From positions 1 through 15,295 of IMG/VR virus record IMGVR_UViG_2778261085_000006: a stretch of 15,295 nt of DNA; one strand, 5' to 3'. A program made the translations under genes and the position numbers. The DNA is from a virus. Lineage: Duplodnaviria; Heunggongvirae; Uroviricota; Caudoviricetes. The notes under the pieces were generated by a model. That model did no database searches. It was not told the origin of the DNA and was given only the letters and a program-made list of their open reading frames with translations. Below, piece after piece: positions 4,187 to 15,295 of the stretch. The stretch's first letter is position 1; every line of letters starts with the position of its first letter.

Positions 4187-4342
4187 TTACTCCTCAGATT
4201 CGTAAGCTGTGAAGACAGTGACCTCCGTCTGGCCGGTTCGGATTCGTACCTCGCAGAGGTCTTTCCTCGTTACCAGTGCCGTCACTATGACGGTTAAACA
4301 GATGACGATCAGGGCGATTAACATCGCCTTTTGCTGCTTCAT
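4187..4342 (-). CDS. hokD: Hok/Gef-family type I toxin (HokD/RelF-like small membrane toxin)
   Basis: 51 aa MKQQKAMLIALIVICLTVIVTALVTRKDLCEVRIRTGQTEVTVFTAYESEE, near-identical to HokD/RelF as recalled; AAGGAG SD 9 nt upstream; perfect 9-bp hairpin 10 nt after the stop. Confidence 0.9.
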   Translation of the reverse strand: MKQQKAMLIALIVICLTVIVTALVTRKDLCEVRIRTGQTEVTVFTAYESEE

Positions 4343-4680
4343 AGCCAGCTTCTCCTTGCCTTTCGGCACGTAAGAGGCTAACCTACATGTGTAAAGCATG
4401 AAATTGGCCTCAGATTAATGTTAAGCGTCTTGCCGGACGCGTAATGTTAACTGGGGCTTTTCTCTGTCTGCCTTACAGTGGCATGCCCGAGGCAGACAGC
4501 CTCAAGCACCCGCAACAATCTTACCGACACCGATAAGAAAACGCTATTTTTTATTGCCAGAACCTTCTGCCCAGGCTAATGTATCCGCGTCAGAACGGCG
4601 CAATGCGCTCGCCTGAGATACGTTTACTTGTCATTGGTGGCAACAGATAACGGCAATTGTTATTTCTGTTTGTTTCCTTC

Positions 4681-9774: not shown

Positions 9775-10164
9775 ATGGACATGAGAAAAAAGCAATACGA
9801 CACCCCGCTAGCAGAAAGGTTAGATACGATCTCGCAACAGCATCATTTAAGTGGTTCAGATTTAGCGCGTATCGCTGGTGTAGGTCGTTCATCAGTCAAC
9901 GCATGGAAAAAAAGAGGAACAATCAGTAAAGATTCCGCAGCCAAAATTGCGGAAGCTACAAACGTTTCCCTTTCTTGGCTACTGACAGGAAAAGAAGAGA
10001 CAAATAGAGAGGCACTTGATGATGACGAGAAGGCCCTGCTTGATGTTTACAGAAGCCTGCCACCTGTAGAACGTAGAAATATGCTGGCAGCTTTTCAAAT
10101 GCGACTTCAAAAACTGACCGAATTTTACTCAGAATACGTCGACCCAATAACAAGACAAAAATAA
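9775..10164 (+). CDS. DicA-like XRE-family HTH repressor (short CI analogue without peptidase domain)
   Basis: 129 aa; N-terminal HTH (SGSDLARIAGVGRSSVNAWKKRG); C-terminal ALLDVYRSLPPVERRNMLAAF resembles the DicA C-terminal region; divergent to the Cro-like gene. Confidence 0.8.
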   Translation: MDMRKKQYDTPLAERLDTISQQHHLSGSDLARIAGVGRSSVNAWKKRGTISKDSAAKIAEATNVSLSWLLTGKEETNREALDDDEKALLDVYRSLPPVERRNMLAAFQMRLQKLTEFYSEYVDPITRQK

Positions 10165-10185: not shown

Positions 10186-10209
10186 ACCGCCGCAAGGCGG
10201 TTTTTTTTT
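10186..10209 (+). terminator. Rho-independent terminator after the repressor gene
   Basis: ACCGCC-gcaa-GGCGGT followed by a T9 run. Confidence 0.8.
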
Positions 10210-10230
10210 GCTTTTCGCGCACTCATTATG

Positions 10231-10259
10231 TTGACATTTGTTCACCTTGGAAGAACAAT
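10231..10259 (+). promoter_or_regulatory. Promoter of the leftward (dicB-operon-like) transcript with a third repressor operator
   Basis: -35 TTGACA (10231..10236), 17-nt spacer, -10 AACAAT (10254..10259); operator TTGTTC-N9-GAACAA at 10238..10258 matches the two sites in the divergent region. Confidence 0.55.
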
Positions 10260-10333: not shown

Positions 10334-10486
10334 ATGGATACTATCGATCTTGGCAACAGCGAATCTCTGGTATGTGGCGTGTTCCCCAACCAGGACGGTA
10401 CGTTCACCGCGATGACGTATACCAAAAGCAAAACGTTTAAAACCGAAACTGGCGCGCGTCGCTGGTTAGCCAGAAACACTGACTGA
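10334..10486 (+). CDS. YdfA-like small protein (50 aa)
   Basis: GAGGT SD 4 nt before ATG at 10334; MDTIDLGNSESLVCGVFPNQDGTFTAMTYTKSKTFK resembles Qin YdfA as recalled; first gene after the DicA-repressed promoter. Confidence 0.65.
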   Translation: MDTIDLGNSESLVCGVFPNQDGTFTAMTYTKSKTFKTETGARRWLARNTD

Positions 10487-10497
10487 TGAGGTTGACG

Positions 10498-11136
10498 ATG
10501 GAATTTAAAGATTTACCAATATCAATACAGGAAATGGCCGCTGATGTGATTCGCTCGCAACTGGCGCGGAACCCAATGATATTAGTAGATAAAGTGTTCA
10601 TCATAAATTTATCAAATCATGTCCGCAATTCTTTTACCGGACTGTATTCAGATTCGTTCACAAACAATCATTGTGTAGAAAATAAAGCAAAGCCCATTGC
10701 AGAAACGATAACGCAAAACATCAATACGAAACAAACCGAAGAAGAAATTGACCAGTTTACCCGAGATACTGGCTTAAAATGCAGGAAAGAAAAATCGCCA
10801 TATGCGGGGAATATGTTTGTTTATGACAACCTTATCCGAATTCGTGGCGAAATTCCGACTGAATACCTAGCAAGAATTCACCGGGCATTACTTAAAAATC
10901 TGGAAACGGAAGTATTTGATGGCAATACCAACGGCTCCTTCGTGGTGTCAACTCTCGCAAAAGAGTGGGATACAGATAATCGCTGGAATGTTGCCACATG
11001 GTTATTCAGCAACAAAGCTGCTGCCCTGGAAGCTGCGGCCTGTATTTGCGACCTGCTAAGGACAGACCGCAAATACAACCTGGATGTGTATAGCTATATT
11101 TATGCTGAACACTATCCGCTATGGATTAACTGGTAA
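10498..11136 (+). CDS. Hypothetical 212-aa soluble protein, AT-rich, unknown family (candidate accessory/defence moron)
   Basis: GAGGT SD 5 nt before ATG at 10498; 1-nt TGATG overlap between the ydfA-like stop and an upstream in-frame ATG; GC visibly lower than flanking genes (about 38% in the first 60 nt counted by hand); no TM segments or recognisable motifs. Confidence 0.7.
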   Translation: MEFKDLPISIQEMAADVIRSQLARNPMILVDKVFIINLSNHVRNSFTGLYSDSFTNNHCVENKAKPIAETITQNINTKQTEEEIDQFTRDTGLKCRKEKSPYAGNMFVYDNLIRIRGEIPTEYLARIHRALLKNLETEVFDGNTNGSFVVSTLAKEWDTDNRWNVATWLFSNKAAALEAAACICDLLRTDRKYNLDVYSYIYAEHYPLWINW

Positions 11137-11346
11137 TTACAAAGCTGCACCAGCAGGGCCACGGCGACCAGCGCCACGATTGTAATCAATGATGCCATTA
11201 TAAAGCGCATTATTTAATTTATCGTCGAATGCCGATTCTGTGAGCCCTAGCACTGAATGAGTTTTTAATAACCCTGATTGCCTGAGTTGATTAACCAGGC
11301 ATTCAATCTGTTTTTCAATAATCGGATGTATTGGCTTGTTTGGCAT
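11137..11346 (-). CDS. Hypothetical 70-aa protein, convergent with the 212-aa gene
   Basis: GGAGGA SD 5 nt before ATG at 11346; its stop codon directly abuts the stop of the 212-aa gene (TAATTA); Gly/Arg/Ala-rich C-terminal tail. Confidence 0.45.
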   Translation of the reverse strand: MPNKPIHPIIEKQIECLVNQLRQSGLLKTHSVLGLTESAFDDKLNNALYNGIIDYNRGAGRRGPAGAAL

Positions 11347-11669
11347 TTTATCCTCCATTGAAGTTACTGGTTGAGAATGGAGACCACACGTGACAGCGTG
11401 TTGTCGTGCGCCGGACACGGATAAGAATCCGGCACTGACAGTTTACTGAAAGAATATATCCCTGAAAAGTCAGGGCATAACTCGAAAGCGCACGGCGGAG
11501 GTGTCTTTTCCTTAGAAGGCTTGTCGTTAGATTTCTTCGACCGTGCGCTTCCGGTTGTGGCACTCCGCGAAATGGCGCGGCGGTAAGTATGGCGGGGTTA
11601 TCCTTACCCCATTAGTGGCACCGGGTTGTCAGGTTGACCATACGCTTAAGTGACATCCCCGCTGCAACA

Positions 11670-11735
11670 ACCCATGTTGATTACCTTTTGGCGGGTATCC
11701 GTTTTTTGTTTTCCCTTGTGATACCCGCCCTTTTT
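11670..11735 (+). ncRNA. DicF-like small RNA candidate (processed sRNA ending in an intrinsic terminator)
   Basis: 10-bp perfect stem GGCGGGTATC / GATACCCGCC with a U-rich 20-nt loop, followed by CTTTTT; 5' flank UUUUGGCGGGUAUC resembles DicF UUUGGCGGUAUC as recalled; sits in a non-coding stretch of the DicA-repressed operon. Confidence 0.4.
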
Positions 11736-12001
11736 AAAGTGAATTTTGTGATGCGGTGAATGCGGCTAAGCGCACGCGGAACAGTTAAAAAGGACAGTTG
11801 ACATTCGTATTGGTTCTTATGGGTGGGTTATCTGTATCCGGCGTTAATTGTTAACTGGTTAACGTCACCTGGAGGCACCAGGCATCGCATCAACAAAATT
11901 CACTTCAGTGATGAAAGGTGAGAGAAAATGTTGAATGTAGCTATTGAAAACCAGAACGGGTGGAATTATAGTGCACCTGCACCTCATAAAACGGGTGCCG
12001 G

Positions 12002-12212
12002 GATTTGCACCCCGATGATCACTAGAGCGCATAACCGCGCCAAAGCGGTTTTTTTATGCGTAAAGCGCAGCCACATTCAGATTATGGTGGGGCGTATGGG
12101 GCCGTTTTCGGGCGGGCCGGATTCTCTAGTGACCGGTAGTGCAAACCCTGTACGTCTCACCACCCATGAGATTTGCACCTACGGTGGTGAGTTTACCAAC
12201 TTATCACTAGAG
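12002..12212. repeat. Three copies of a bipartite motif TTTGCAC-N-TCACTAGAG (direct, inverted, direct) upstream of the Rha gene
   Basis: Copy 1 at 12004..12027, inverted copy CTCTAGTGA...GTGCAAA at 12124..12146, copy 3 at 12172..12212 with a longer internal spacer. Confidence 0.5.
12034..12055 (+). terminator. Possible intrinsic terminator/attenuator in the Rha leader
   Basis: ACCGC-gccaaa-GCGGT followed by T7; stem is only 5 bp. Confidence 0.4.
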
Positions 12213-12221
12213 GCTGCCATC

Positions 12222-12776
12222 ATGGCTACTATCCCTACCCTGTCTCACCCTGACGTAACCATCGAAAACGGTCGCGCTATCACTACGTCTGTTGCGATCG
12301 CAGAGTTCTTTGGCAAACGACACGACAACGTGTTACGTGCCATCGCAAACATTGAATGCTCAGAAAAATTTAACGCCCTCAATTTTGAGGACGTAACGTA
12401 CACCGACGCCAAAGGCGAAAAACGTCCAATGTACCAAATCACCAAAAACGGCTTCGTTTTCCTGGTGATGGGCTTCACTGGCAAAAAAGCCGCTGCATTC
12501 AAAGAGGCCTACATTGCTGAGTTCGACCGCATGGAGGCAGAGCTGCGTCAGAATAACACCCCACCAACTGACAAAATAATTCCTGGCGATGGTCGCACTC
12601 TGGTTGTTCGATTCGACGAACACGGCAATATCAAATTCACCGAAACCGTTCCTGATGGTGCAATGGTCTGTACTCTGGATACCTTCCAGTTTTATCTGGA
12701 GAAACAGGGATGGACACTTGTAAACCGGAGCGCAATTAGAAACATGACTGTCGAACAATTGCTGCGTATTAAATAG
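12222..12776 (+). CDS. Rha-family phage regulatory protein (antirepressor-like)
   Basis: N-terminal AIAEFFGKRHDNVLRAIANIECSEKFNALNFE...MYQITKNGFVFLVMGFTGKKAAAFKEAYIAEFDRME matches the Rha N-terminal domain; the in-frame extension back to 11928 contains a terminator and repeats, so was not taken as coding. Confidence 0.75.
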   Translation: MATIPTLSHPDVTIENGRAITTSVAIAEFFGKRHDNVLRAIANIECSEKFNALNFEDVTYTDAKGEKRPMYQITKNGFVFLVMGFTGKKAAAFKEAYIAEFDRMEAELRQNNTPPTDKIIPGDGRTLVVRFDEHGNIKFTETVPDGAMVCTLDTFQFYLEKQGWTLVNRSAIRNMTVEQLLRIK

Positions 12777-12821
12777 TTTTCTGGAATTTACTTCATATGA
12801 CTAATTATTATGGAGATAATT

Positions 12822-13043
12822 ATGATTGCTCATCACTTCGGAACTGATGAAATACCACGTCAGTGTGTGACTCCAGGCGATTATGTTCTTCATGAGGGCA
12901 GGACATATATTGCATCGGCAAACAATATTAAAAAGCGAAAACTTTATATTCGTAGCCTGACCACAAAAACATGCATAACTGGCTGCATGGTTAAAGTTTT
13001 CCTCGGTCGTGATGGATTACCTGTAAAGGCTGAGTCATGGTGA
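12822..13043 (+). CDS. Small 73-aa protein at the position and size of Rac KilR (identity unverified)
   Basis: GGAG SD 6 nt before ATG at 12822; lies between the Rha and RecE-like genes. Confidence 0.5.
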
Positions 13044-13295
13044 TAGACAGGAAAATAAAATGCGCTTACCTCCTTTGCAATAAAGGATTTGAAGAAAGCA
13101 AAAGTATTAAAAACCACTTCATTTCATGCGTGGCGTTATCCAAACAACGGAAATGAAAAAAAAATATTGTAGTGAAATCTGTGCCGAAAAAGACCAGATG
13201 GCACATGAACTTTAATTAACTGACTGAACGAAACTGAATTTATGCCTGCAATGGCAGGGATTCGCTCAGCCTTAAAATAGTTATGAGGTTTATCA

Positions 13296-15295
13296 ATGAG
13301 TATTGATAAAGAAGAATTTGCACTATATTGCGAAGCAAAAAATGACAAAGTCAGAAAACGCCTGGGAATTAAAGGCGGTTTTTACTGGACTACAGCAAAA
13401 AAATTATCTGTTGCAATCTCCCGCTGCATTACCGCAATGGATGACAACGATTATGATGAAGACGACTTTAAAAAACCGGTCCGAGTCCATTTACCCGTTG
13501 TGAATGACCTTCCACCGGAAGGCGTGTTTGATACGGAATTCTGCAACCGATACGAAAAAGGCGGGGAAGATGGCATCACAATGGTATTTATCGCCCCATC
13601 TCCCTCTGCGCAGGACAACCAGGTCAGCACTGACAATACCAATGTTAATGGCGAAGACATGACGGAGATTGAGGAGAATATGCTACTCCCGATTTCCGGT
13701 CAGGAACTGCCCATTCGCTGGCTTGCTCAACACGGCAGCGAAAAACCGGTAACGCACGTTTCACGCGACGAACTCCAGGCATTACACATTGCACGGGCTG
13801 AAGAACTACCAGCTGTTACTGCCCTGGCTGTTTCCCACAAAACCAGCCTGCTCGACCCGCTGGAAATTCGCGATCTCTACAAACTGGTTCGTGACACTGA
13901 CAACGTTTTCCCTAATCCTGGTAATTCAGACCTGGGACTGATGACTGCTTTTTTCGAAGCATACCTGGGCGCTGACTACACTGATCGTGGTCTGCTTACA
14001 AAAGAGTGGATGAAGGGGAATCGTGTTTCACGTATCACCCGCACGGCTTCCGGTGCAAATGCCGGTGGCGGGAACAAAACCGATCGCAATCCGAATTTAG
14101 TACACACCTTCGATACGCTGGATGTGGAGATTGCAGCAGCCACACTTCCGATGGATTTTAATATTTATGAAATTCCGGGCAGCGTTTATCGTCGCGCAAA
14201 AGAAATCGTCCTGAAAAGAGAAAGTCCGTTCAAAGAATGGTCCGCAGCACTTCGCGCAACCCCGGGTATTCTGGATTATTCCCGCGCCGCTATTTTTGCA
14301 CTTATCCGGAGCGCATACCCTGAGTTTTATCATTACCCGGGACGCCTTCAGAGGTATATCAATGCCTATTTAACGGAGACTGATCACGAGAACCCTACCG
14401 AGGAAACTCTCACTGCTGCACGACATACACCGGAAAAAGATATCCTGGAAGAAGTTAACCGCGAACTGGCCGCTGAACGCGAAACAGAAGAAGAAAAAAA
14501 TAATGAGGAAAAATCACAACCGTCTGACGCAATGGCAGATGAACAGGCAACGACTGAAGCAATGGGACAGGATACAACTGAATATCGCCAGGACACTCAA
14601 TCGCTGGATACTCAGGCACAGATAAATCCGGTTAATCAGGTAAAAGTTACCGCTGACGAAGTAAACAAAATTATGCAGGCAGCCAATATCAACCAGCCTG
14701 ATGCCGACAAAATACTGGCAGTCCATCGCGGTGAATTCGTTGACGGAATTAGCGACCCGAATGATCCGAAATGGGTTAAGGGGATTGAAACCCGCGATTC
14801 TGTGAACCAGAACCTGCCAGAATCGGAACAAAACAGCCAAAATGCGTTACAAAACGAGCCAGAAACGAAACAGCCTGAACCAGAAGAGCAACAAGAACCG
14901 GAAAAAGTCTGCACCGCCTGCGGTCAGACCGGCGGCGGCAACTGTCCTGACTGTGGCGCGGTGATGGGCGACGCAACATACAAGGAAACATTCGATGAAG
15001 AGAATCAGGTTGAAGTTCAGGAAAATGATCCGGAGGAAATGGAAGGCGCTGAACATCCACACAAGGAGAATGCTGGCAGCGCTCAGGACCACGCCAGCGA
15101 TAATGAAACTGGCGAGGCGGCAGATCACTCAATTAAGGTGAACGGTCATCACGAAATCACATCCACCAGCAGGACGTGTGACCATCTAATGATCGACCTC
15201 GAAACCATGGGAAAAAACCCTGATGCCCCGATTATCTCAATAGGTGCAATATTTTTCGATCCGCAAACCGGAGATATGGGACCGGAATTTAGTAA
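13296..15295 (+). CDS. Large RecE/exodeoxyribonuclease VIII-like protein, partial (continues past window end); has a zinc ribbon and the start of a DEDD-type 3'-5' exonuclease domain
   Basis: GAGGT SD 6 nt before ATG at 13296; at least 666 codons with no in-frame stop (checked codon by codon); [18 protein letters not shown] zinc ribbon; [26 protein letters not shown] matches exonuclease motif I; not in the ORF track because it lacks a stop in the window. Confidence 0.8.

Follow-up and report, generated by a model that had tools for sequence, protein, structure and literature searches.

The stretch of DNA analyzed here, 15,295 nucleotides long and referred to below as the window, belongs to a Qin/Rac-type lambdoid prophage of Escherichia. 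Its closest DNA match is an E. coli chromosome (97.4%) and its closest protein match comes from Escherichia sp. E4742 (98%); the IMG/VR contig L006 encodes both proteins that are the subject of this analysis in identical form. On the plus strand, a gene for a 129-residue DicA-like HTH repressor (9775 to 10164; Pfam Phage_CI_repr, 1.7e-12, and HTH_3, 2.6e-8) occupies the dicA position of the K-12 Qin prophage. It is followed on the same strand by an intrinsic terminator at 10186 to 10210 (stem ACCGCCGCAAGGCGGT, then a T-run), a dicBp-like promoter of the early operon at 10231 to 10259 (TTGACA-17-AACAAT, 10/12 in a consensus scan), and the first gene of that operon, which encodes a ydfA-like DUF1391 protein of 50 residues (10334 to 10486; Pfam, 4.4e-28). 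The same order of DicA-type repressor, terminator, promoter, and ydfA is found in K-12 Qin, where DicA represses the promoter at the corresponding position (PMC10448788), the operon is driven by dicBp and repressed by DicA (PMC5069750; PMC10448788), and dicBp transcripts extend from ydfA through dicF (PMC10448788). The site at 10231 to 10259 is presumably active as a promoter in the window.

The second gene of this operon (10498 to 11136, plus strand) encodes a 212-residue protein that matches phrog_2151 (E = 1e-96) over its entire length (residues 1 to 212 of 212) and is called "Ybl81" in some sources, a name not found in the literature searched. Its ATG at 10498 is preceded, at a distance of 6 nt, by GAGG, and its stop codon ends at 11136. 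The gene begins 11 nt from ydfA or, if the alternative ATG at 10486 is used, overlaps the ydfA stop codon as TGATG; the consensus scan reveals no promoter-like site of its own. Its placement after the ydfA-like gene in a DicA-type early operon, proposed in a first-pass annotation of the window, is borne out by homology and by the layout of K-12 Qin. In some E. coli genomes (L001, 6204 to 6842, and L002, 3615 to 4253), this gene is marked in the RefSeq/PGAP annotation as a pseudogene truncated at the N terminus ("incomplete; missing N-terminus") despite an intact 212-residue ORF that starts with MEFKDLP.

The facing gene (11137 to 11346, minus strand) spans 210 nt including the stop codon and encodes a protein of 69 residues, not 70 as first stated; the convergent ORF itself and its GGAGGA Shine-Dalgarno (SD) sequence had been recognized correctly. 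The SD sequence lies at 11351 to 11356, with a spacing of 4 nt to the ATG (5 nt when counted from the GGAGG core). The protein matches phrog_4274 (E = 2.4e-40) at residues 1 to 69 of 69 and is basic (pI 9.0), with a GRAVY value of -0.30 and a highest 19-residue hydropathy of 0.32. Its homologues form 35 clusters, all from Escherichia or Salmonella and all annotated as "hypothetical"; the Salmonella version is 52% identical (E = 6e-24) and has 64 to 69 residues, depending on the start codon. Pairwise dN/dS values for this ORF are 0.23 to 0.29. The phrog_4274 match, the 35 clusters, the dN/dS values, and the Salmonella homologue all argue against a chance ORF. Homologues of the large protein fall into 131 clusters, again exclusively from Escherichia and Salmonella and annotated as "hypothetical" or "Ybl81", and the pairwise dN/dS values of its C-terminal domain are 0.14 to 0.19. 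Sequence comparison thus indicates that both genes are genuine and under purifying selection. The RRGPAG tail of the small protein does not fit the RGRP motif, and a reading of this tail as an AT-hook was dropped. A scan of genome contigs with the small-protein profile gave one match, a false positive that is part of a 394-residue Bacteroidota protein.

The two stop codons abut as TAATTA (11134 to 11139), and a consensus scan of both strands from 10498 to 11346 finds no terminator-like site, in agreement with the first-pass annotation on both points. Because this convergent, terminator-less arrangement is conserved, with exactly abutting stops at 70 of the 73 IMG/VR loci that carry the small ORF, antisense control or transcriptional interference is plausible. 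The low GC content ascribed to the large gene is a real dip (41.0% versus 48.4% for the window, which puts the gene among the 4% of 639-nt segments with the lowest values) that resides mostly in its N-terminal half (37%). It is a modest one, however, and has parallels elsewhere, as the dicA-like gene (42.8%), kil (41.0%), and the segment from 13044 to 13500 (37.2%) are similarly AT-rich. The horizontal acquisition that it had been taken to suggest fits the mosaic and exchangeable character of the cassette described below.

On the minus strand, the small gene is preceded by a predicted structured 5' leader (11347 to 11435), recognized by folding and by comparison of 17 distinct leaders; the leader of the window was compared with the homologous positions in L004, L017, L018, L021, L041, and L086 to L089. 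In the direction of the small ORF, it comprises a hairpin, H1 (11408 to 11435), with an invariant 9-bp stem (GUGCCGGAU...GUCCGGCGC); a second hairpin, H2 (approximately 11384 to 11405), which is kept as a hairpin in four unrelated sequence versions; an anti-SD element, CUCCAU (11378 to 11383); and the SD region, AUGGAGGA. The anti-SD element pairs with AUGGAG at 11353 to 11358, which overlaps the SD sequence GGAGGA. The H1 stem includes two G.U pairs that exist only in minus-strand RNA and become A.C mismatches in plus-strand RNA. RNAalifold reveals a compensatory A-U to U-A change in the anti-SD helix (CUCCU:AGGAG) in 4 of the 17 sequences, and the SD sequence is predicted to be paired in the minimum-energy single-sequence folds of nearly all 17 distinct leaders. 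H1 was considered as an intrinsic terminator and dropped, as no T-run follows it on either strand.

A candidate promoter of the small gene (11440 to 11468, minus strand) has a -35 element TTTTCA at 11463 to 11468 and a -10 element TAAACT at 11440 to 11445; at 8/12 versus the consensus, it scores below the scan threshold. The sequence upstream of H1 differs completely between contexts, and a -10 hexamer of the TAnnnT type is located exactly 6 nt before H1 in five of seven otherwise unrelated upstream sequences. This pattern suggests that transcription would start at H1 from a promoter belonging to the small gene itself. In the Qin prophage of K-12 MG1655 (L165, 2545 to 2640), a remnant of the leader with H1, H2, and CUCCU is found right after ydfC, and the SD sequence and the small ORF are lost. 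The lack of the small ORF in K-12 is probably the reason why the dicBF papers searched contain no mention of an antisense gene.

The leader with its hairpins is kept without any following ORF in the L016 class of loci as well as in K-12 Qin. This, along with the missing terminator between the two genes, would be expected if the small ORF were incidental and its transcript mattered mainly as RNA, with a convergent promoter in the dicF leader supplying an antisense transcript that damps a leaky, toxic dicBF-type operon; the dicBF products are indeed toxic and under layered control (PMC10448788). Nevertheless, such a purely RNA-based role appears very unlikely in light of the dN/dS values of the ORF, its strong SD sequence at the correct spacing, and the 52% amino acid identity maintained in Salmonella over much more diverged DNA. 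Furthermore, an SD-masking helix is sensible only for a translated mRNA. A lack of conservation of the small frame at homologous loci had been named beforehand as a result that would speak against the first-pass proposal; the frame is instead kept, being intact at 73 of 73 loci.

On the plus strand, the leader region is part of a homologue of the dicBF long UTR (11413 to 11676), including its long processing stem GAAAGCGCACGG...CCGTGCGCTTCC (11484 to 11552), that is near-identical to the DicF-upstream region in L002 to L004 and in K-12. At the DicF position, alignment with DicF loci reveals a noncanonical small RNA allele (11677 to 11735, plus strand) with a terminator hairpin, TTGATTACCTTTTGGCGGGTATCC...GATACCCGCCCTTTTT. 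Both of its flanks are near-identical to those of the DicF loci, and the Rfam DicF model has no match in the window, compared to scores of 75 to 77 bits in relatives; the canonical DicF and the downstream dicB are both absent from the window. At least five alleles occur at this position among the loci fetched (L001, L006, L009, L012, L016, L020, L040, L058, and others), including chimeras that join the 5' half of DicF to another 3' hairpin and the reverse. Accordingly, the DicF locus looks polymorphic, and its alleles possibly differ in target specificity.

Several features of the remaining prophage deserve mention. The place of dicB in relatives is taken by the segment from 11928 to 12776 (plus strand), which contains matches to isrK (68.6 bits) and the C4 antisense RNA (78.1 bits), at 11979 to 12055 and 12080 to 12167, followed by a Rha-type antirepressor-like domain. 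The Pfam Phage_ASH match of the 282-residue ORF found here (residues 14 to 108) coincides with the isrK/C4 RNA genes, so that either the region is dual-coded or the family consists in part of translated RNA genes and the true protein start lies further downstream. The ant-like gene is followed by a gene for a Kil-type septation inhibitor (12810 to 13043, plus strand; phrog_294, E = 2.2e-36). Elsewhere in the window, a sok antitoxin RNA (4340 to 4511, minus strand; Rfam RF01794, 115 bits) indicates a type I toxin-antitoxin locus of the hok/sok type.

The 212-residue protein is divided into an N-terminal MEFKDLP module (10498 to 10662), a low-complexity linker (10663 to 10788), and an acidic C-terminal domain (10789 to 11136), all on the plus strand. 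Its relatives, collected by searching 1.84 billion representative proteins with a profile, fall into two classes. In about 50 clusters, the similarity is limited to residues 1 to 55 (MEFKDLP...RNVRDAFxGLY, two predicted helices), after which the proteins continue into unrelated C termini, for total lengths of 34 to 286 residues; the N-terminal part matches phrog_1363, phrog_6937, and phrog_9419 as well. A few Salmonella and metagenomic proteins, including P0182 (220 residues) and P0171 (286 residues), share only residues ~98 to 192 and have a different N terminus. The existence of these two classes of relatives suggests that the large gene is a fusion of a family-wide N-terminal module, a linker, and a specific C-terminal domain. 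In P0171 (L088 to L090, 5001 to 5861), an XRE-type HTH (Pfam HTH_3, 8e-6) is inserted between the N-terminal region and the shared C-terminal domain, a hint that the latter may serve as the partner-binding or oligomerization domain of a DNA-binding protein.

The AF2 model of the full 212-residue protein is poor (pLDDT 52). The C-terminal domain modeled alone, with the Salmonella homologues added, gives a better-defined structure (pLDDT 74.5, pTM 0.71, core 77 to 93), predicted to be a two-layer ββαββα sandwich in which the last ~17 residues are uncertain. The invariant residues of this domain are mostly hydrophobic or Gly/Pro, with a few polar ones (D, N, and E); they include no Cys or His and form no recognizable catalytic set. 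Because catalytic residues are not conserved, the domain is more likely to function in binding or oligomerization than as an enzyme. A reading of this domain as a Prp protease was dropped, since the Cys and His residues are not conserved, and its resemblance to SUI1- and ACT-like folds was dismissed as generic topology.

Only noise is obtained from Pfam, NCBIfam, PADLOC, and PDB sequences, whether the query is a single sequence or a profile of the entire large protein, its N-terminal module, its C-terminal domain, or the small protein, and fold searches with the C-terminal domain model give generic matches, none of them significant. The initial impression that the 212-residue protein has no assignable motif thus holds in sequence-family and fold searches alike. 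Among the 5027 models of PADLOC-DB v2, no family matches either protein or P0182, and P0171 is matched solely through its inserted HTH. In these databases and fold searches, neither protein resembles a known superinfection-exclusion, abortive-infection, or other defense protein, and neither has a predicted transmembrane segment, in contrast to SieB and RexB. Comparison with the defining features of known systems gives a similar result. Type II toxin-antitoxin genes form one co-transcribed operon, whereas these genes converge from opposite strands, and no recognizable toxin or antitoxin domain is detected in Pfam, NCBIfam, PADLOC, PDB, or the fold searches; the 69-residue protein is not the small hydrophobic membrane peptide of type I systems; and, in place of an inner-membrane protein expressed in the lysogen, as in SieB/Rex, there are proteins of no homology to these, with the 212-residue one encoded in a repressed operon. 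The pair belongs to no described family and does not fit what structurally defines toxin-antitoxin systems of type I or type II, or SieB/Rex.

These results bear on the original proposal of a two-component system for anti-phage defense or superinfection exclusion, with both products acting against incoming phages. The neighborhood speaks for it, as rex, sieB, and similar genes of lambda and P22 are classically found beside the immunity region. The distribution of the pair, which is narrow, patchy, and enriched in prophage-rich STEC strains, would suit a defense role as well. In addition, DicB, encoded in the same type of operon, is reported to protect against phage (PMC6832061). However, no PADLOC model or other defense family is matched and neither protein has a membrane segment. 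Moreover, with the large gene under repression in the lysogen, the two products would seldom coexist until induction. We regard a joint defense function as quite improbable.

The C-terminal domain of the large protein and the small ORF have nearly congruent distributions. Among 5426 complete E. coli genomes, 600 contain DNA encoding the former (751 places) and 597 contain the small ORF (744 places), so that the pair is present in ~11% of the set, with many O157:H7 and further STEC strains among the carriers. Each of the 73 IMG/VR loci that have the small ORF also has a complete C-terminal domain gene alongside in convergent orientation, and none of these loci has the small gene only. The large gene can be found without its partner: in L008 and in the FKG-ending "ybl81" type, the small ORF is internally deleted and the large gene is intact. 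Deposited phage genomes contain the N-terminal module, but neither the C-terminal domain nor the small gene.

The comparison of presence and absence in related prophages, as suggested in the first-pass annotation, reveals that the pair is kept from Escherichia to Salmonella. In Salmonella and metagenomic prophages (L086 to L090), the large protein is represented by a homologue of the C-terminal domain only, with 31% identity over the shared region in BLASTP (E = 2e-15) and 36% in the search table. Its gene takes second place, behind a Cox-like gene, in an early operon of another type (integrase, HTH repressor, Cox-like gene, and homologue) and is again followed by a convergent ORF of 64 to 69 residues, whose 3' end overlaps its own by 11 to 53 nt. 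The retention of the small partner by such distant homologues in another operon is the most telling evidence of linkage. A contrast in charge is preserved in four of four lineages, with a pI of 4.7 to 5.3 for the C-terminal domain and 9.0 to 9.9 for the small protein. On these sequence data, the two genes are a linked pair whose convergent arrangement is conserved from Escherichia to Salmonella. This linkage could merely reflect inheritance of an ~850-bp block as a unit; homology of the Salmonella loci includes the downstream leader and UTR, so that the conserved block extends beyond the two genes.

Other prophages have different genes at the same place, in line with its early description as an accessory hotspot; the two genes occupy a variable slot within an early operon under DicA repression. 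This slot contains N-terminal-module genes with at least seven different C termini, together with at least six unrelated convergent small ORFs (61, 69, 73, 77, 90, and 100 residues), or none, and a common leader. Thus, besides the 69-residue ORF, at least five further unrelated ones (61, 73, 77, 90, and 100 residues) are found behind other N-terminal-module genes with a leader of the hairpin-hairpin-anti-SD type. Neither these small ORFs nor the other N-terminal-module proteins of the slot have a Pfam or PADLOC match. The N-terminal-module proteins of 106, 109, and 124 residues have a mostly common C-terminal sequence, differing mainly in the last ~20 residues, and are accompanied by various small ORFs or by none, which indicates that the small ORFs are not always tied to the upstream gene.

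A mosaic hotspot of this kind, with many C termini and small ORFs behind one leader, is consistent with the two genes being independent accessory genes (morons) within one exchangeable block, the large one encoding an early lytic host-takeover protein and the small one an unrelated product expressed in the lysogen. The pairing of closely similar N-terminal-module proteins with different small ORFs and the persistence of the large gene after deletion of the small ORF point the same way. We consider such independence somewhat less likely than the reading favored below, as it does not readily account for the survival of the pair through divergence to 31 to 36% identity in one protein and 52% in the other and through a swap of both the N-terminal module and the surrounding operon, for the lack of small-only loci among the 73, or for the conserved complementarity of charge. 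If the genes were independent, this would be an ordinary accessory gene pair.

The reading that we favor, with a probability of roughly 0.4, is that the two genes form an antagonistic pair under opposite regulation, with one risky product and one that counteracts it, either in the manner of a toxin and antidote or as a defense factor with self-immunity. It draws on the apparently opposite regulation, the convergent layout without a terminator, and the pairing itself, all three of them maintained across two distinct prophage backbones; that the promoters are used as proposed, that the products interact physically, and that they are antagonists of a given polarity are all inferred. The locus would then represent a two-gene accessory module, conserved among lambdoid (Qin/Rac-like) prophages, with oppositely regulated products. 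As the product of the second gene of a DicA-silenced early operon, the 212-residue protein would be made only after derepression. The 69-residue protein would be expressed from its own promoter within the dicF leader region, from an mRNA with a 5' hairpin and an SD-masking helix. The risky product would harm the host or the phage's own lytic growth, and its partner would neutralize it. Upon derepression, strong transcription of the early operon may silence the small gene through the terminator-less convergence and, conversely, read-through from the small gene may damp leaky early transcripts. As to polarity, the existence of large-only loci and the lack of small-only ones mildly favor an active or risky role in the lysogen for the small protein and a neutralizing one for the large early protein; very few lineages contribute to this comparison.

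The antagonistic-pair model could be extended to the whole slot, from the ydfA-type genes to the dicF leader, which would represent a polymorphic expression platform. The antisense promoter and SD-masking leader would drive interchangeable small proteins (61 to 100 residues, at least six unrelated families) in the lysogen, and the early proteins with the MEFKDLP module and matching C termini would be their cognate neutralizers. This generalization is speculative and on balance unlikely to hold in full. If true, it would define a previously undescribed family of prophage cassettes, combining a small effector with early self-immunity (or a toxin with its antidote), built on convergent transcription, whose most widespread member, and the one with the deepest conservation, would be the 69-aa/212-aa pair. 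If the two genes are antagonists under opposite regulation, the pair by itself would provide a compact example of a lysogen-expressed factor coupled to an induction-expressed antidote via convergent transcription. Lacking functional annotation and absent from the K-12 model, it appears to have escaped study even though operons of the dicBF type are well studied. The common leader would provide a handle for finding a whole set of small prophage proteins.

Among known systems, SieB-Esc of P22 and lambda and BstA-aba are similar in logic, as each combines an immunity-region neighbor that acts in the lysogen with a tightly linked neutralizer that permits the phage's own lytic cycle. SieB is located in the membrane and Esc is produced internally in the same frame, whereas BstA immunity is provided by a DNA element. 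In contrast, the present pair consists of two separate soluble proteins encoded on opposite strands, without similarity to these systems in sequence or fold. Type I toxin-antitoxin systems such as txpA/RatA and bsrG/SR4 share the convergent, terminator-less layout, which would force an overlap of the 3' transcript ends, and the predicted SD-masking leader recalls the inert mRNAs of the hok/sok type. However, no membrane peptide is encoded here, the small protein being hydrophilic and basic, and its partner is a gene for a conserved 212-residue protein rather than a noncoding RNA. The CdiA-CT/CdiI and Rhs-CT/RhsI cassettes resemble the slot in combining a conserved N-terminal module with swappable C termini, each of which tends to travel with a particular small neighbor. 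Here, the small gene is encoded on the other strand; the proteins, which are cytosolic, have no secretion or delivery domain or recognizable toxin domain; and the pairing of C terminus and small ORF is loose for the group of 106, 109, and 124 residues. The operon as a whole has a counterpart in the dicBF operon of K-12 Qin, ordered dicA, dicBp-ydfA-ydfB-ydfC-long UTR/dicF-dicB-ydfD, with which the window shares the layout of repressor, terminator, promoter, ydfA, and long UTR, the latter near-identical including the long stem. In place of ydfB and ydfC, the window has the 212-aa gene and the convergent 69-aa gene; another small RNA allele is found at the DicF position, and isrK/C4/ant-like and kil genes are located where K-12 has dicB.
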